Shown in pieces: positions 1,462 to 9,785 of a stretch of DNA of 10,528 nucleotides; positions within the stretch are counted from its first letter, which is position 1; every line of letters begins with the position of its first letter. The stretch lies in the IMG/VR virus record IMGVR_UViG_2565956629_000002, positions 1 through 10,528 of that record, one strand, 5' to 3'. A program made the translations under genes and the position numbers. This DNA comes from a virus (lineage: Duplodnaviria; Heunggongvirae; Uroviricota; Caudoviricetes). Under the pieces are notes generated by a model, which had not been told where the DNA came from, did no database searches, and was given only the letters and a program-made list of their open reading frames with translations.

Positions 1462-1656
1462 TTAATTATTCTGCTGATTTTCTTCCATCTCGGCTTCTGC
1501 TGCCAGTGATTCAATTTTATCTGTGAATATTGCTGACAGTGTTGCAAATTCAGCATCAGTGACAGCGGGAATTGGAACAAACCTGATCCCGCTGTGTGCA
1601 AGCATGTTTGCAGTTTCAAGGCATTTCCTTAAATCTGCTGGTGATGCCCTGTTCAT
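1462..1656 (-). CDS. Small hypothetical protein (64 aa) with acidic C-terminal tail, last gene of the cargo cassette
   Basis: ATG at 1656-1654 overlaps the methyltransferase stop (ATGA overlap). GGGAG lies 8 nt upstream. Protein MNRASPADLRKCLETANMLAHSG...AEAEMEENQQNN. The longer 104-aa track ORF (start 1776) would overlap the MTase out of frame and is disfavoured. Stop is 3 nt from the int stop. Confidence 0.4.
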   Translation of the reverse strand: MNRASPADLRKCLETANMLAHSGIRFVPIPAVTDAEFATLSAIFTDKIESLAAEAEMEENQQNN

Positions 1657-2300
1657 GCTGCACGCTCCCGCCCCTGGTTGTCTGTTGGTGACAGCGGAGC
1701 ATTGCTGAATGCATTTGTTAATCCGGCAATATACAACGCGTATCCAGGGTGTAGTTGCACTGCTGGGTCTTCGCACTGATTACCCCAAACATCGAAGCCA
1801 TGAGACGTTTGGCGGGCGAACAGTTCAATGCGAGAAACATCGCCTAACAATTGCACAAGTTTTTCACGAACGACATCTGGTTTTCTTGAATGCTCAAGCC
1901 GCGGTGCGGTAAATGACTGAACGATACCTGCATTAATGCGCGGAGGTAGTTTTCCCTTTACCGCAAACAGGCAATCTTCACTGTTGGCGCGAGTCATGTG
2001 TCCCATCCCCATAACCAGTTTATCTGGTTGTCGACTACCACATTTTATCCACGTGAAGCCCTTCATGGTCATCAGACGAAATCCCCAGGCTTCAACAACT
2101 TTTAGTGCTTCGAGTGGTTGTGTTGGCACCCACCACATGGCCAACAGACAGTTTTCATCGGCCAAATCCCACACAGGAAGGCGGCAGATATCCAGCACAC
2201 TCATAACCGGATATTTAAAACCGGCACCGCGATTACCATCTGCGGCTTTGTCCCGGTATACCCAGGGTGGATCTGCATAGATTAGCGTGTATTTTTTCAT
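1653..2300 (-). CDS. MT-A70 family N6-adenine DNA methyltransferase (215 aa)
   Basis: Start ATG at 2300 (internal Met of the track ORF) with GGGAG 7 nt upstream. MKKYTLIYADPPWVY carries the DPPW catalytic motif close to the N-terminus, as in MT-A70-type enzymes. ELFARQTSHGFDVWGNQ near the C-terminus is also typical. Start overlaps the stop of the upstream DndB-like gene (ATGA). Confidence 0.85.
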   Translation of the reverse strand: MKKYTLIYADPPWVYRDKAADGNRGAGFKYPVMSVLDICRLPVWDLADENCLLAMWWVPTQPLEALKVVEAWGFRLMTMKGFTWIKCGSRQPDKLVMGMGHMTRANSEDCLFAVKGKLPPRINAGIVQSFTAPRLEHSRKPDVVREKLVQLLGDVSRIELFARQTSHGFDVWGNQCEDPAVQLHPGYALYIAGLTNAFSNAPLSPTDNQGRERAA

Positions 2301-3364
2301 TGTTCTGCTCCCAGACTTCCTTTGGTAAAGGCTTGTATCAGCCTGTTTGCTGCCGCTTTCTGTGCTGCTACATTGGCAATAACTGATAGTTTTTCCTGGC
2401 TTGCTTTCGTGCAGATCCCAACCCAATTATCCATTAGGAAAAAATTCTCTCTTTCTGCGAAGTCAGTATTTGCACATAATGTTTCAATCATTGAAATTAT
2501 TTCTTTTATTGAGTGATTAACCATCATTTGCTGAACAGCATAGCCAAAAGCGTTAATCATCACTGCATGAAACTGGATATATTCTCTTTTGTATTCTGAT
2601 TGCTTTGTACCATGGCGAATTGCTTCTAGTTGTGTAAGACATAACCATGATTCCCATACTGACTCGATGTTACCAATTTCTAGTTTTTTCCCATTATGAA
2701 TACAAAATTTTGATGTTGAATCACTTAATGCTTTGAAACTCACCCACATGTTTGACTTTGACGGAACAACGTTGTGCTCGAAGTCAGTGACTTCTGCAAA
2801 AGTGTCATGTTGCGACAGGAAAGACACCATTTCTTGGGCAACATCGTTTCGTCCGTCATACGCCATATTAATTGCTGCAGATGGTTTTGAAACATTATTA
2901 TTAATGTCAGAAAAGAACTGCTGACGCGCCTTCAAAGGAAGGTTATGCGTAAGCATAAGAGGAATCATAATTGTTTCGCCATAATTACGGCAGAACTCAG
3001 CTAATCCTGCAGCACGATGCTGTCCATCAAATAATTTTATTTCTGCATCCATAGGAAATCTAGCTAAACCGACATTAGTATTTCCAATCTCATGGAACTC
3101 TATTTCTGAGTTACAATTTCCGACCAATGGTGGAACAATAAATGGTTCCTTTTTCTCGTAAGCGTTGACTAAATATTGATAAAACTTTTTTACCCTGGTT
3201 GGATTAATTTCACGTTGAGAACGTTCAAGGGTACTTCCCGTATTGTCGGTTGCCAATACTCTCGATAGTGCTCTTGCTGGTACTGTCATCATAAGTATTA
3301 CAGTGCTTCCCTGCGTTCCTCGTGATGCGGGAAATTCAAAGAAATAATCGCCTACCTTGCTCAT
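2297..3364 (-). CDS. DndB-like DGQHR-domain protein (ParB/Srx-fold, DNA-modification-associated family)
   Basis: Contains the name-giving motif LFDGQHRAAGL and an N-terminal YFFEFPASRGTQG segment as in DndB/DGQHR proteins. Start placed at ATG 3364 (MSKVGDYFF, AGG about 7 nt upstream). An in-frame ATG at 3400 would add 12 N/Q-rich residues and is the alternative. Gene is visibly more AT-rich than its neighbours. Confidence 0.82.
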   Translation of the reverse strand: MSKVGDYFFEFPASRGTQGSTVILMMTVPARALSRVLATDNTGSTLERSQREINPTRVKKFYQYLVNAYEKKEPFIVPPLVGNCNSEIEFHEIGNTNVGLARFPMDAEIKLFDGQHRAAGLAEFCRNYGETIMIPLMLTHNLPLKARQQFFSDINNNVSKPSAAINMAYDGRNDVAQEMVSFLSQHDTFAEVTDFEHNVVPSKSNMWVSFKALSDSTSKFCIHNGKKLEIGNIESVWESWLCLTQLEAIRHGTKQSEYKREYIQFHAVMINAFGYAVQQMMVNHSIKEIISMIETLCANTDFAERENFFLMDNWVGICTKASQEKLSVIANVAAQKAAANRLIQAFTKGSLGAEQ

Positions 3365-3392
3365 GATATTACCTTTTACATTATTGTTTTGA

Positions 3393-3692
3393 TTATTCAT
3401 AAACCACCCCGCAACATCCTATGCCGCTATAGTCGCCACGGCGAAGGCCGTTACCTTTTGTGATACATTGGTCCCTGCGAACCGCGATCCTTGCACGTTC
3501 AACATCACCAGAAGCAACATCCATACACTGAAGCCAAAGGTGAGCGGCAATGCGGAATTGCCCTTTTTTCTCTCTTTCAATCGCGCGTTTTTCGATCTCT
3601 ATCGCCGCAGGAGTAACGGCGACAATCTTTGACGGACTGCGCATTGAAACCTTATTCATGTGATATTTTTCAAGTCGGCTTAACTTTCTCAC
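3393..3692 (-). CDS. Hypothetical small protein, possible first gene of the cargo cassette
   Basis: Only long ORF on either strand in this 300-bp segment. GTG start at 3692 with GAGGG about 9 nt upstream; alternative internal ATG starts at 3659 and 3644. Stop TAA at 3393-3395 lies within the ATGAATAA context of the 3400 alternative start. No recognisable domain. Confidence 0.4.
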   Translation of the reverse strand: MRKLSRLEKYHMNKVSMRSPSKIVAVTPAAIEIEKRAIEREKKGQFRIAAHLWLQCMDVASGDVERARIAVRRDQCITKGNGLRRGDYSGIGCCGVVYE

Positions 3693-3801: not shown

Positions 3802-4050
3802 TCATGCAGCGTTGCTCACAGGACGATATACACGTTGCTGAACAGGAGGCTTTTTACCCTGGAACTCTGCCGGGCTTGCTGCCTGACGTTCATCAAGCCA
3901 ACGCTCAACTTCGTCACGGTTCCATGCGCAGCGTTTGTCAGTGATATACCAGCGTTTAGGAAATTCACCTGCGCGCTCCATACGGTCGATAGTGCTCCAT
4001 GACAGTGGCACCACCGCCAGGAGTTCCTTCTTACCTAATGCACCTTTCAT
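3802..4050 (-). CDS. AlpA/Xis-family excisionase-like DNA-binding protein
   Basis: 82-aa protein with LLAVVPLSWSTIDRMERAGEFPKRWYITDKRCAWNRDEVERWL, the typical MerR-like winged-helix signature of AlpA-type prophage excisionases/regulators. RBS GAGAGGT 5-6 nt upstream of the ATG. Confidence 0.85.
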   Translation of the reverse strand: MKGALGKKELLAVVPLSWSTIDRMERAGEFPKRWYITDKRCAWNRDEVERWLDERQAASPAEFQGKKPPVQQRVYRPVSNAA

Positions 4051-6286: not shown

Positions 6287-6305
6287 AACTTGTTACCTCG
6301 GTCTG

Positions 6306-6382
6306 TTACCGTTGAGGTAATAATTATGCGTATTTGGTTTGATGTCAATAGATATGAGTTAAAAAAATTACCCATAAGGTAA
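6306..6382. promoter_or_regulatory. OL-like operator pair: two perfect TTACC-N5-GGTAA palindromes flanking the pL-like promoter
   Basis: TTACCgttgaGGTAA (6306-6320) and TTACCcataaGGTAA (6368-6382), 62 bp centre to centre. Confidence 0.6.
6320..6348 (-). promoter_or_regulatory. pL-like early leftward promoter
   Basis: On the minus strand: TTGACA (complement of 6343-6348), 17-nt spacer, AATTAT abutting the 6306-6320 operator. The second operator lies 19 bp upstream of the -35. Confidence 0.45.
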
Positions 6383-6393
6383 TCTTGTTGGCA

Positions 6394-6418
6394 ATAAAAA
6401 AGCCGCCATGAGGCGGCT
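6394..6418 (-). terminator. Rho-independent terminator downstream of the repressor gene
   Basis: Stem AGCCGCC (6401-6407), loop ATGA, stem GGCGGCT (6412-6418). On the minus strand the hairpin is followed by TTTTTTAT (plus-strand A-tract 6394-6400). Confidence 0.65.
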
Positions 6419-6439
6419 TACTTACTGAAAACTATAGTT

Positions 6440-7024
6440 TTATTGTTTGCTTCTTTCGTTCTGGCTGATGACAAATTCAATGTAACTTTCGATCTTTGCC
6501 TTCTCTGTTTCGGGTAACAATGCGTAGCGCGAGCGGTCATAGTTGATAGTCGCAGGGTCGTGCGGGTGAATCAGTAATTCATAGCCGTGACGCCCGAATG
6601 CGGATGCAACATTCTCCAGGGTGGAAATGGAAACGCTGACTTCATTGTTTAACAGGCGGCTGATTGTCACCTGGGCGACGCCGGATGCGCGGTGTAGTTT
6701 TCCCTGCGTTGAAAGGTCGCGGCTTTCGCTCATCCAGCGTTCCAGGTTGTGAGCCGCCAGCTGACCAATGTCGCTTGGGCCGACAGGCTGAAACCCCTCC
6801 TGAGAAAGCGAGCGATCGATATCAAGCCAGTTACGGGGTTTATTGGCGGCAGCTTCAATTTTTCGCGCAACCTGGTCGCCGATAACCTTCTTGCCAAGAG
6901 CCCAGCGGTTTACCAGATTTGCCTGAGTTCCAAGTTTTTCTGCCATCCGCGTCTGAACACCATTGAATTCACGGTCGATCAAGTCGTTGAGATTTTGCCT
7001 GCGGACGTCCTGGATACTTTTCAT
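6440..7024 (-). CDS. Prophage repressor-like protein with two HTH domains and no S24 peptidase domain
   Basis: 194 aa, transcribed divergently from the cro-like gene across an operator-rich region. Two HTH-like segments (QTRMAEKLGTQANLVNRWALGKK and LHRASGVAQVTISRLLNNEVSVS). No LexA-type Ala-Gly cleavage site or Ser/Lys peptidase module recognisable. Confidence 0.8.
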   Translation of the reverse strand: MKSIQDVRRQNLNDLIDREFNGVQTRMAEKLGTQANLVNRWALGKKVIGDQVARKIEAAANKPRNWLDIDRSLSQEGFQPVGPSDIGQLAAHNLERWMSESRDLSTQGKLHRASGVAQVTISRLLNNEVSVSISTLENVASAFGRHGYELLIHPHDPATINYDRSRYALLPETEKAKIESYIEFVISQNERSKQ

Positions 7025-7079
7025 TTTCTGGAAAATCGCCTCATATATGAATCAGTAGATGATTCAATTTAAAGCAATA

Positions 7080-7142
7080 TTACCCAACAGGTAAATGCAC
7101 CTCATAGGTAACTATCCTTGATTTTTGTTACCTTATGGGTGA
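7080..7142. promoter_or_regulatory. OR-like operator cluster between the repressor and cro-like genes
   Basis: TTACCcaacaGGTAA (7080-7094, perfect), gcACCtcataGGTAA (7097-7111, degenerate), TTACCttatgGGTgA (7128-7142, one mismatch). Confidence 0.6.
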
Positions 7143-7153
7143 ATATTTATTAT
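7125..7153 (+). promoter_or_regulatory. pR-like promoter for the cro-like gene
   Basis: TTGTTA (7125-7130), 17-nt spacer, TATTAT (7148-7153). The 7128-7142 operator overlaps the -35 and spacer. Confidence 0.35.
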
Positions 7154-7178
7154 CTGAAATAAATATCAGGCAATAGCT

Positions 7179-7409
7179 ATGAGCGATAACGGACATTTCG
7201 ATTTCAAAAAGCACTGGCTTGCACTTACTCCGGATGAGCGTGAAGCCTTCGCACAGGAAGCCGGAACGACGAGTCACTATATCCAGACTCACTTAACAGG
7301 TAAGCGCAAAATGCCAGGTAAAGTATTGATGAATGGGCTTTTTAAAGCCTGTAAAACAAGACAATGGCTGCGCTCAAAAGCAGAACTGGCATACTTCTTC
7401 TACTCATGA
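7179..7409 (+). CDS. Cro-like small HTH regulator (76 aa)
   Basis: Divergent from the repressor, immediately right of the OR-like operators. HTH-like segment REAFAQEAGTTSHYIQTHLTGKRKM. Followed by a terminator. Confidence 0.75.
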   Translation: MSDNGHFDFKKHWLALTPDEREAFAQEAGTTSHYIQTHLTGKRKMPGKVLMNGLFKACKTRQWLRSKAELAYFFYS

Positions 7410-7431
7410 TATCCAGCTACAACCCTCTGTA

Positions 7432-7453
7432 GACCGCCACCCGGCGGTCTTTT
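7432..7453 (+). terminator. tR1-like rho-independent terminator after the cro-like gene
   Basis: Stem GACCGCC (7432-7438), loop ACCC, stem GGCGGTC (7443-7449), then TTTT (short T-tract). Confidence 0.5.
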
Positions 7454-7557
7454 CATATCTATTCGTACCTCAAAGGTAATAAAAAACCAAATCTGGTTGA
7501 TCAAATTTTCCAATTGTGCAAAATATCCAATATCAATAACAAAAAGAGGCGGAAAAA

Positions 7558-7770
7558 TTGAAGATAGTAACCAGAATGGAGGCCGCAAAAGCCGGGTTAA
7601 ATCGCTATTTCACAGGAAAGCGGTGCCGTCACGGCCATCTCTCTGAAAGGTATGTTCTGAACGGAACATGTGTTGAATGTGCAATGAATAGCGCCAACCG
7701 CCATCGTAATGAATTTGCTTGTGCACTAAAGAGTGCAAGAGGGGAAACCTATGGCAAGCAGCTGGATTAA
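7558..7770 (+). CDS. Small zinc-finger-like protein at the CII position
   Basis: KRCRHGHLSERYVLNGTCVECA has a Cys/His cluster (C-x-H-x-H ... C-x-x-C). TTG start at 7558 with GAGG 8 nt upstream; the first ATG is at 7576 without an obvious SD. 3' end overlaps the next gene. Confidence 0.6.
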   Translation: MKIVTRMEAAKAGLNRYFTGKRCRHGHLSERYVLNGTCVECAMNSANRHRNEFACALKSARGETYGKQLD

Positions 7771-8575
7771 GGTTGAAGTTATCACTCCTGATAAACCTGA
7801 AATTTTTCAGATAGCAGAAATTCTGGGTATTGATCCAGATGCTGTTCTTGGAAAGCTGGTTCGTATATGGGCATGGGCTGACCAGCAAACAATAGACGGT
7901 AACGCTGGCAGCGTTACAAAAGGAGTACTTGATAGACTCGCTTTTATTACAGGATTTGCTGACGCCCTCATTAGCGTCGGATGGCTTGCTTATCATGACG
8001 GCAAACTAATTCTTCCAAACTTTGAGCGACACAATGGAGAATCATCGAAAAAACGTGCACTTACGAATAGAAGAGTGGCAGAGCATCGAAAACGAGTAAC
8101 GCAAAAAGTAACGCCAACAGCGTTACAAAAGGAGTTACCAGAGGAAGAGGAAGATATATATAAAACCCCACACATAGCGCACGTGCGCGAGGGTGCTCCG
8201 ACCAGTGAAGCGAACGGTATGCCGTTGCAGGTGGCTGAACCTGAATTTCTGGATGGCCTGAGTGAACCCATCGGGAAATTTCCGATGACCGATGGCTGGC
8301 ATCCGTCGCCGGATTTTCGACGGCGTGCTGCGCTGTGGGGAACGGCCCTGCCGGAACCGGAATTTACACCTGCTGAACTTGCTGCATTCCGGGATTACTG
8401 GATGGCTGAGGGCAAAGTGTTCACGCAGGTTCAGTGGGAACAAAAATTCGCCAGGCACGTAAATCATATCAGGGGAAAATCAAAAAACGCCGGGAAAAGC
8501 GATGAGCTTGACTGGAATAACACTGACTGGATAGAAGGGGTGTGGGATGAAATCAACTCCAGAACTTCTCAATGA
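7751..8575 (+). CDS. Replication initiator (O-analogue; DUF1376/YdaU-like N-terminus with DnaT-like C-terminus)
   Basis: ATG at 7751 with GAGGGG 8 nt upstream. N-terminus MASSWIKVEV...LGKLVRIWAWADQQ and C-terminus PMTDGWHPSPDF...FRDYWMAEGK recall the prophage replication-initiation family found upstream of P/DnaC-like loaders. Contains internal iteron-like repeats. Confidence 0.75.
   Translation: MASSWIKVEVITPDKPEIFQIAEILGIDPDAVLGKLVRIWAWADQQTIDGNAGSVTKGVLDRLAFITGFADALISVGWLAYHDGKLILPNFERHNGESSKKRALTNRRVAEHRKRVTQKVTPTALQKELPEEEEDIYKTPHIAHVREGAPTSEANGMPLQVAEPEFLDGLSEPIGKFPMTDGWHPSPDFRRRAALWGTALPEPEFTPAELAAFRDYWMAEGKVFTQVQWEQKFARHVNHIRGKSKNAGKSDELDWNNTDWIEGVWDEINSRTSQ
8096..8168. repeat. Iteron-like repeats plus AT-rich tract inside the initiator gene: candidate replication origin
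   Basis: GTAACGC at 8096-8102 and 8108-8114, inverted GCGTTAC at 8120-8126, at a 12-bp period. Followed by GAGGAAGAGGAAG and the AT-rich tract GATATATATAAAA (8156-8168). A similar GTAACGC-N5-GCGTTAC palindrome sits at 7907-7925. Confidence 0.4.
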
Positions 8576-9323
8576 GTACGATCGCTTACGTGAGCATGGT
8601 GTTGCTGTGCATGAAGAGCGGCGTGACAGCAATGGCAAAAAGGAGCATGTCGCTAGAATTTTCAATGAACTATTTGTCCAGTTACAGGCTGCATTTCCCG
8701 CAAGCGTTTCGACCATAAGGGAGCAGAACAAACTTAATGAATTCCGTAAGCAATGGATGCTTGCGTTTCTGGAGAATGGGATCACTACAATGGAACAGGT
8801 TAACGCTGGTATGCGCCACGCCCGCGCCAGTGAGTCTCCGTTCTGGCCGTCGCCAGGGCAATTCATCAAGTGGTGTAAAGACAGCAAGATGGTTCTTGGC
8901 GTCACCATTGACGATGTGATGGCAGAGTTTCACCGGTACAGCAAGGAAAAAAGTTTATATCCTGGTGGTCCCGAAAGATTCCCGTGGCGGCACCCGGTTA
9001 TGTACTGGGTCGTATGTGATACCCGCCGTGCAATGTATCAGCGCCAGCTTAGCGAGATTGAGGTTGAGAAACACGCGCGCAGGCTGCTCGATGATTGGGC
9101 GAAAAAGGTGGCTTCAGGACAGCAGATACCCGATCCGGTGATCAGCATACAGGCAAAGCCAGAACCCATGAGTACGCCTCCGGACACAGGGAGAGACGTT
9201 TACCATCCACCAGGGCGAAGTTTCGGGTGCATGCCTAACGCCGCCACCCTTGGGGGAATAACACCGGCGCAGTGGCTGATGGAGGAATACAGGCGGGGAA
9301 AGGCGGCAGGATTTATCAAGTAA
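8547..9323 (+). CDS. Lambda P-like replication protein (DnaB helicase loader)
   Basis: The stretch QLQAAFPAS...EQNKLNEFRKQWMLAFLENGITTMEQVNAGMRHARAS...PFWPSPGQFIKWC closely parallels the conserved core of lambda P as recalled (FPAS, QW.LAF.ENGITTMEQVNAGMR, PSPGQF..WC). Confidence 0.88.
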   Translation: MKSTPELLNEYDRLREHGVAVHEERRDSNGKKEHVARIFNELFVQLQAAFPASVSTIREQNKLNEFRKQWMLAFLENGITTMEQVNAGMRHARASESPFWPSPGQFIKWCKDSKMVLGVTIDDVMAEFHRYSKEKSLYPGGPERFPWRHPVMYWVVCDTRRAMYQRQLSEIEVEKHARRLLDDWAKKVASGQQIPDPVISIQAKPEPMSTPPDTGRDVYHPPGRSFGCMPNAATLGGITPAQWLMEEYRRGKAAGFIK

Positions 9324-9360
9324 TACCAGCGCGATAGCGCATTTTTTTACGTCTCGATAA

Positions 9361-9437
9361 TTACCTGTGAGGTAATAAAATATTCTAAACTCTATTGATT
9401 TCGTGTCTTATGTGGTTTTTAATTACCTCAGGGGTAA
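9361..9437. promoter_or_regulatory. Third operator pair (O3) flanking a promoter downstream of the replication genes
   Basis: TTACCtgtgaGGTAA (9361-9375) and TTACCtcaggGGTAA (9423-9437), both perfect, 62 bp centre to centre: the same spacing as the OL pair. Confidence 0.55.
9395..9423 (+). promoter_or_regulatory. Candidate repressor-controlled rightward promoter (P3)
   Basis: TTGATT (9395-9400), 17-nt spacer, TTTAAT (9418-9423) abutting the downstream operator. The upstream operator ends 19 bp before the -35, the same geometry as the pL-like promoter. Confidence 0.45.
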
Positions 9438-9440
9438 ATT

Positions 9441-9785
9441 ATGAGAAAACAGATACAGGCTCTTGGTCGACTCAAAACAGGCCAGATGAACAAAACAGAA
9501 TCTGCGTATTGCCAGCACCTTGAGCTGCGTAAACGTGCAGGGGAAATCGCCTGGTATCGATTTGAGGGTATCAAGCTGCGATTAGCTGACAACACGTTCT
9601 ATACGCCCGATTTTGCTGTGATGCTCGCCACCGGCGAGATGGAACTGCACGAAGTGAAAGGTTTCTGGACCGACGACGCCAGGGTGAAAACCAAAGTCGC
9701 CGCAGATCAGTATCCGTTCCGAATCATCGGGGTAACGGTTAAACCAAAGAAAGCAGGTGGTGGCTGGAACATCGAAGAGTTCTGA
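9441..9785 (+). CDS. DUF1064-like phage protein (possible PD-(D/E)XK-type nuclease fold)
   Basis: 114-aa ORF with GGGG about 8 nt upstream. YTPDFAV...EMELHEVKG resembles a D...E.K nuclease-type motif. Family name is from recollection, not a search. Confidence 0.75.
   Translation: MRKQIQALGRLKTGQMNKTESAYCQHLELRKRAGEIAWYRFEGIKLRLADNTFYTPDFAVMLATGEMELHEVKGFWTDDARVKTKVAADQYPFRIIGVTVKPKKAGGGWNIEEF

Follow-up and report, generated by a model that had tools for sequence, protein, structure and literature searches.

The locus considered here raises the question of what is encoded by a short open reading frame (ORF) that lies in the early region of a prophage, between a cro-position gene with its terminator and the replication genes. 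A preliminary description had drawn attention to the Cys/His-rich character of the product and had proposed that it could be a lysis-lysogeny or late regulator. The ORF is referred to below as the zinc gene, and the window means the whole stretch of 10,528 nt that was analysed. The features of the locus are collected in Table 1.

Assignment of the Phage and Organisation of the Early Region

Judging by nucleotide identity, the window is the early region of an epsilon15/phiV10-type (Uetakevirus-like) prophage, which is not strictly lambdoid. Over positions 6400-8600, the identity is 98.5% with E. coli phage TL-2011b and 98.2% with vB_EcoP_ZX5, and phiV10 is ~98% identical over the left half of the same segment; these relatives are epsilon15-type podoviruses of the genus Uetakevirus. 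The genes and sites follow in the order Rep, operator cluster, cro-position gene, terminator, zinc ORF, DnaT-domain initiator and λ P-like helicase loader. The cro-position gene is divergent from the repressor gene, with the operator cluster (7080-7142) between them, and its product is 100% identical to the phiV10 counterpart. When the ZX5 repressor ORF21 was overexpressed, an effect on the lytic-lysogenic cycle was seen (PMC9782041), and the ORF21 gene is located within the stretch that is 98.2% identical to the window. The zinc ORF had been placed at the "CII position". It does come after the cro-position gene and a terminator, but this is only a positional analogy, the phage being epsilon15/phiV10-like rather than λ-like.

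Table 1. Features of the zinc-gene locus (coordinates refer to the window).
Feature	Position	Strand	Remarks
Repressor Rep	6440-7024	-	SPC32H repressor homologue, PDB 5d50 E = 4.5e-42; Pfam HTH_3
cro-position gene, 76 aa	7179-7409	+	epsilon15 gp39 homologue; phrog_35 "transcriptional repressor", E = 6e-13
Intrinsic terminator hairpin after cro-like gene	7431-7450	+	Terminator scan; -15.1 kcal/mol, z = -4.3; followed by TTTTCATATCT
Imperfect repressor operator (putative) GTACCTCAAAGGTAA	7465-7479		One mismatch to TTACC-N5-GGTAA
Promoter-like element	7497-7525	+	-35 TTGATC 7497-7502, 17-nt spacer, -10-like AAAATA 7520-7525 after TGC
Conserved leader CCAATATCAATAACAAAA	7527-7544	+	Between -10-like element and Shine-Dalgarno sequence; degenerate half-operator at second-operator position
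Shine-Dalgarno sequence AGAGG	7545-7549	+	8 nt 5' of TTG; read from sequence
Zinc-protein CDS, TTG start, 70 aa, pI 9.7	7558-7770	+	Orthologue of epsilon15 gp40/phiV10 p42; phrog_1081
Zinc-binding module, residues 1-45 (putative)	7558-7692	+	Four invariant Cys/His ligands
Ligand codons (putative)	C23 7624-7626; H27 7636-7638; C38 7669-7671; C41 7678-7680	+
DnaT-domain replication initiator gene	7751-8575	+	Pfam DnaT E = 6e-19; phrog_2509 E = 3e-127

The coordinates of the initiator gene are identical in the PGAP annotation. This gene also contains two 28-nt repeats (7899-7926 and 8108-8135), which are 89% identical, lie 209 bp apart and each include the palindrome GTAACGC-N5-GCGTTAC. Relatives with other initiator types possess the palindrome pairs GTCCGC-N7-GCGGAC or TACCGTA-N4-TACGGTA at the equivalent place. 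It is likely that the palindrome pairs inside the initiator gene are candidate origin or initiator-binding sites.

In the left part of the window, on the minus strand, the gene of a DndB-family protein (2297-3400; Pfam DndB E = 3.5e-46, DGQHR motif) adjoins that of an MT-A70 methyltransferase (1653-2426). Small regulators, PerC-like (3393-3692) and AlpA-like (3802-4050), come after this pair of the 1653-3400 region. The pair is possibly a DNA-modification or defence-related cargo of the early-left operon.

For vB_EcoP_ZX5, a tRNA was given at complement 14482..14558 (PMC9782041). This position maps to ~7740-7816 of the window (minus strand), across the junction of the zinc gene and the initiator gene. 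A tRNA or structured RNA over the 3' end of the zinc gene was rejected, as ARAGORN found none in the window and Rfam none in 7000-8000.

Coding Status and Start Codon

The ORF is almost certainly a real gene, and its translation appears to start at TTG, as revealed by the conserved start position, a pN far below pS, the phrog_1081 alignment from residue 1 and the PGAP call. Of 11 related loci, seven have ATG and three GTG as the homologous start codon, the window having TTG, and a purine-rich stretch is present 5' of the start in every one of them. The protein matched the phrog_1081 profile with E = 2.2e-27, residues 1-61 being aligned with profile positions 1-61 of 67. The exact CDS has been called by PGAP in E. 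coli chromosomes (WP_000706991.1, "hypothetical protein"), and 113 of 5,426 complete E. coli genomes possess the gene. Thus, TTG 7558 holds as the start supported by a Shine-Dalgarno sequence, as the preliminary description had it. An internal in-frame ATG at 7576 is not preceded by a Shine-Dalgarno sequence, and a start there would drop residues 2-6 (K-I-V-T-R). The orthologues keep these residues, which are part of the module consensus "IISRxEA" of the whole family, so initiation at the ATG would truncate the domain.

Orthologues of the zinc gene show pN of 0.02-0.21 against pS of 0.15-1.0, and dN/dS is 0.05-0.13 where calculable; by this comparison the gene is under strong purifying selection. 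It is extremely improbable that the ORF is untranslated, as part of nothing more than a long leader to the replication operon. Such a leader would fit the non-ATG start and the lack of the CDS in the TL-2011b RefSeq and vB_EcoP_ZX5 GenBank records, but it conflicts with amino-acid conservation despite saturated synonymous sites, with the invariant putative zinc ligands, with the ATG start of most orthologues, with the Shine-Dalgarno sequence at 8 nt and with annotation by PGAP and in other phage records. The records that leave the orthologue unannotated are NC_019445 (TL-2011b) and MW722083 (vB_EcoP_ZX5), and the omission is probably due to the TTG start; the orthologue is annotated in GenBank JQ011317, phiV10, epsilon15 and PGAP-annotated E. 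coli genomes.

Control Region Upstream of the Zinc Gene

The terminator hairpin precedes a T-run and is found at the equivalent place in 10 relatives, where the arm sequences differ; the phiV10 record annotates a terminator there as well. In all 11 loci, an imperfect operator and a promoter-like element are situated between the terminator and the zinc gene. The motif TTACCN5GGTAA, allowing at most one mismatch, occurs at eight sites in the window against 0.23 expected, and none of 200 shuffles reached eight; in the epsilon15 record, TTACC..GGTAA sites are annotated as repressor-binding. In 11 of 11 loci, the operator-like site is found 90-96 bp ahead of the start codon, always with one to three mismatches in the left arm and with a perfect right arm GGTAA. 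The enrichment of the motif and the conserved position of the site bear out the earlier reading of 7465-7479 as an operator-like site with one mismatch between terminator and gene.

Perfect TTACC-N5-GGTAA sites are found as pairs 62 bp apart around the leftward promoter (6306 and 6368) and around the promoter of the DUF1064 operon (9361 and 9423), and one perfect operator (7080) belongs to the Rep/cro intergenic cluster. A common layout can be recognised in 6300-6386 (minus strand), in 9357-9443 and upstream of the zinc gene, namely an operator, ~18 bp, TTGAYx, ~17 bp, an A/T-rich -10 element and a second operator, the latter being degenerate in the zinc-gene copy. The promoter-like element of the zinc gene agrees with the consensus at 8 of 12 positions and was missed by a consensus scan. 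Its parts GGTTGATC and AAAAT (7520-7524) are invariant in 10 relatives, with divergence of the 17-18 nt between them.

The conserved imperfect operator and promoter-like element and the layout shared with two other regions make plausible the repressor-sensitive control that had been suggested for the gene. A separate, probably weak promoter, at most partly Rep-sensitive, is a reasonable inference from this arrangement. As no relative has a perfect operator at this place and the second one is degenerate, the control by Rep may be weak or absent.

The leader CCAATATCAATAACAAAA is nearly invariant in the five closest (group A) loci, where the promoter spacer and synonymous sites have diverged, and in an alignment it falls opposite the second operator of both other promoter regions. 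Possible interpretations are a remnant of an operator, a site of autoregulation or an element that serves translation from weak start codons. A repeated autoregulatory target was considered and rejected, the conserved leader motif being found only once in the window.

As for the other operators, the paired sites (6306-6382 and 9361-9437) are exactly 62 bp apart from centre to centre, and the same pairs exist in 10 of 10 relatives. Within each pair, one operator is located ~18-20 bp upstream of a -35 element (TTGACA or TTGATT) and its partner overlaps the -10/+1 region, an arrangement suggestive of DNA looping by Rep, or of its cooperative binding, at several promoters. A one-mismatch operator-like site TTACCTTAAAGGTAT was also found at 151-165, ~45 bp upstream of the GTG (208) of the integrase ORF, and Rep might touch int expression or the att region through it.

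Putative Zinc-Binding Module and Its Predicted Fold

The motif CRHGH...CVEC, noted before as zinc-finger-like, is real with respect to C23, H27, C38 and C41, which are invariant in the orthologues, in 149 multi-module proteins and in 41 diverse modules; the remaining histidine of CRHGH, H25, is not conserved, and most homologues have Asn or a different residue in its place. Such invariance of four Cys/His residues suggests that C23, H27, C38 and C41 hold zinc. They are spaced as C23-x3-H27-x10-C38-x2-C41, with a long helix following, and the module consensus reads h-I-[ST]-R-x-E-A-x3-G-L-x2-Y-F-T-G-x-P-C-x2-G-H-x3-R-x6-C-x2-C. The pI is 9.5-10 across five orthologues.

An AlphaFold2 model built with 20 homologues (pLDDT 88) comprises a helix (residues 6-11), two strands (16-18 and 30-32) and a long helix (39-68); it places C23 and H27 in the loop between the strands and C38 and C41 at the N-terminus of the long helix. 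The predicted order of elements, with two putative ligands in a loop or knuckle and two in the first turn of a helix, would fit that of treble-clef zinc fingers, whereas the ligand set is C-x3-H...C-x2-C instead of C-x2-C...C-x2-C. The module may tentatively be said to resemble a treble-clef finger, and the likeness lies only in the order of predicted secondary-structure elements.

No PDB structure matched the model at E < 1 in a Foldseek search, and searches of PDB sequences (phmmer and two profile searches) gave no credible relative of the module. Pfam contains no family matching the 70-aa protein at E <= 1, and for 41 isolated modules and the multi-module proteins it returned spurious Cys-rich matches only, beyond the nuclease domains of the latter. 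Neither NCBIfam nor PADLOC matched the zinc protein, its sole library match being phrog_1081 ("unknown function"), and the literature search found nothing specific on the motif string or on a described module of such kind. The view of the module as a degenerate HNH core was rejected, as hhalign comparison with HNH cores of the same proteins gave a probability of 0.2% and no Pfam HNH match was found.

Module Family and Nuclease Fusions

The profile search of 1.84 billion representatives yielded 16,407 representatives at E <= 1e-3. The best 149 matches of the 16,407 contain two to four modules per protein. In these 149 the first module begins, by the median, 1% into the protein, and the last one is followed by a tail of 130 aa (median); Pfam recognised HNH in 34 and Endonuclease_7 in 15, and 21 have a tail shorter than 40 aa and represent module arrays without a nuclease. 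In thousands of phage free-standing nucleases, the N-terminal tandem copies range from one to five and are followed by HNH or Endonuclease VII catalytic domains and, by annotation, also by GIY-YIG. Structural matches in BFVD are members of the family, some of them bearing the name HNH or endonuclease VII and one that of a GIY-YIG "group I intron endonuclease". Annotated examples of the module-nuclease architecture are found in a 210-aa protein of Xanthomonas phage Murka, in vB_KsaM-C1 and in a 176-aa protein of Klebsiella phage ZX22. Several module nucleases are lone genes among structural genes, some in the opposite orientation, and free-standing homing endonucleases are likewise lone genes.

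Homing nucleases carry single or tandem DNA-binding modules on different nuclease cores (PMC5714182). Because of this design and the pI of 9.5-10, it is proposed that the module most likely binds DNA, by analogy with such nucleases; the proposal is drawn from domain architecture and charge only.

Family members are also present in phages of Jerseyvirus, Drulisvirus and Jedunavirus. These are virulent genera, which would argue against a lysogeny-specific role of the module.

Stand-alone members of more distant relationship have varied surroundings. One is located directly upstream of a gene for an HTH_36 protein followed by DnaB and SSB in an unrelated phage contig, and another comes after a family-A DNA polymerase; others lie upstream of a DUF1376 protein gene or inside a helicase/primase-polymerase block, and some are situated beside the terminase small subunit or among unannotated genes.

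Synteny, Allele Exchange and Possible Role of the Protein

The tblastn identity of the zinc protein is 53% with epsilon15, 63% with phiV10 and 48% with SPN1S, and the range for orthologues is 48-64%. In all 11 loci, the order is Rep, gp39-like gene, terminator, zinc gene, optional C5-methylase and DnaT-domain initiator. The junction of the zinc gene with the next gene is a 20-nt overlap in the window, where the ATG of the initiator is at 7751, and one of 1-4 nt in epsilon15, Tyrion and Scandinavium; in phiV10, ST11-OXA245phi3.2 and SPN1S it is a gap of 15-42 nt. The scan of genome contigs yielded four loci only.

The alleles of the zinc protein form three groups that assort independently of other modules, including repressor type and initiator type. 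Between phiV10 and the window, Rep is 98%, gp39 100% and the zinc protein 63% identical, and the identity to phiV10 breaks at ~7502. The independent assortment of alleles points to a generic or host-directed target and argues against a partner-specific role. The mosaic joint with phiV10-type phages is intergenic and comes directly after the conserved GGTTGATC (7400-7502 versus 7503 onward); among 5,426 complete E. coli genomes, the part left of the joint is found in 524 and the full 7400-7800 in only 113. The palindrome pairs of the initiator gene were rejected as an origin-site partner of the zinc protein, as they follow initiator type and not zinc-protein allele.

The exchange of alleles as a separate mosaic unit, with the break at ~7502, would also suit a free-standing homing-endonuclease gene of which only a domesticated or decaying remnant is left. 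This remnant would be either functionless or a "site protector", a recognition domain lacking the nuclease that sits on a target site and prevents cleavage there by related endonucleases of competing phages. Homing-type nucleases are the main habitat of the module, and the arrays without a nuclease among the best 149 matches (21, tail < 40 aa) agree with such an origin. Simple decay is nevertheless excluded by the strong purifying selection and by a position and start fixed in 11 divergent loci, and for a site protector neither a cognate nuclease gene nor a target site was identified. An origin and fate of this kind are unlikely for the zinc gene.

A somewhat better chance, though still a small one, is given to a zinc module that binds a protein and acts as an early adaptor or inhibitor here and as a tether in the nucleases; the partner could be a protein of host replication or transcription, or else the initiator or helicase loader of the phage. 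Contacts with proteins are often mediated by treble-clef-type fingers; the recurring association with replication modules, including the presumed translational coupling to the initiator, is in line with them, and the assortment of alleles independent of phage partners fits a conserved host target. Tandem N-terminal arrays before at least two (three by annotation) unrelated nuclease domains are, on the other hand, the usual signature of DNA recognition (PMC5714182), and the high positive charge fits nucleic-acid binding.

The idea of a lysis-lysogeny or late regulator found no support, the family consisting mostly of N-termini of phage HNH/Endonuclease VII-type nucleases. It is quite unlikely that the protein stands in for CII functionally, as a zinc-finger activator of repressor and integrase expression that promotes the establishment of lysogeny, or as a factor that otherwise biases the lysis-lysogeny decision. 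Like λ CII, the zinc gene product is a small basic early protein, its gene lies past a terminator with the cro-position gene before it and the replication genes after it, and the gene is conserved in temperate Uetakevirus-type phages and prophages. However, homology to CII was rejected, with no Pfam Phage_CII match, no helix-turn-helix in the model and no TTGC-N6-TTGC site, the CII-type direct repeat, in the window. The preliminary description was right in finding the protein unlike the λ CII fold, as the predicted structure, which would be zinc-based, is helix, beta, beta, long helix. The role of a CII analogue is also at odds with the prevalence of nuclease N-termini in the family, with its members in the three virulent genera, with alleles that assort independently of the repressor type they would activate, and with a gene that seems translationally coupled to replication or methylase genes and does not stand alone.

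On balance, and with moderate confidence, we regard the zinc protein as a stand-alone single copy of an uncatalogued zinc module associated with nucleases; it would be a small early protein that binds DNA and is produced along with the replication proteins. The basic product of 70 aa would consist of one CHCC module of ~45 residues and a long basic helix, and this small stand-alone protein would bind DNA in a zinc-dependent manner. Its gene would be the first of the replication operon, translationally coupled to the DnaT-domain initiator and transcribed from its own weak promoter past the terminator of the cro gene, with the conserved imperfect Rep operator on this promoter. In a lysogen the gene would be silent or nearly so, and it would be switched on after derepression. 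The bound protein might then aid early transcription or replication or occupy a site. Neither the palindromes of the initiator gene nor the leader motif in the window provided a candidate DNA target.

A broader proposal, which is possible but stays tentative, is that the CHCC module represents a very large undescribed class of tandem-arrayable DNA-recognition zinc fingers that read targets for phage homing-type nucleases. A single copy would have been domesticated in temperate epsilon15/phiV10-type phages as a repressor-controlled early factor acting on DNA at the onset of replication.

Significance

A conserved early gene is hereby defined for this phage group, two of the closest phage records omitting it. 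The zinc gene does not reveal a new lysis-lysogeny switch. The putative fourth operator-associated promoter region adds detail to the Rep regulon as mapped for epsilon15/phiV10/SPC32H-type phages. Pfam, NCBIfam and the PDB all lack the module, yet its representative clusters number more than 16,000. Should it indeed be a modular DNA reader, it would explain the choice of targets in a large class of phage HNH/Endonuclease VII nucleases and could be of practical use as a compact DNA-binding unit.

Comparison with Known Systems

Epsilon15 gp40, phiV10 p42 and SPN1S_0045 (PHROG 1081) are direct orthologues of the zinc protein, with the same position, start position and CHCC residues. The allele of the window, which is shared with TL-2011b, differs from them in its TTG start, in a C-terminus that is 6-9 residues longer and in the overlap with the initiator gene.

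Other small phage zinc-finger regulators, namely P2 Ogr/P4 Delta, Mu Com and the TraR/DksA-like proteins, resemble the zinc protein in size and in a set of four zinc ligands, which are putative in its case, whereas none of their Pfam models matched it at E <= 1 and their genomic position is different. The ligands are arranged as C-x2-C-x22-C-x4-C in Ogr and as C4 in Com and TraR, a spacing unlike that of the zinc protein.

The closest parallel in architecture is provided by the nuclease-associated modules of the NUMOD/AP2 type, which are likewise single or tandem and fused to more than one type of nuclease in phage free-standing endonucleases. The present module constitutes a sequence family separate from NUMOD1-4 and AP2, matches no Pfam family, is N-terminal to the nuclease and also exists as a stand-alone small protein. 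It possesses putative zinc ligands, and NUMOD1-3 and AP2 are not known to have any. If the module is read as a tandem DNA reader, its arrays would be a phage counterpart of eukaryotic zinc-finger arrays.
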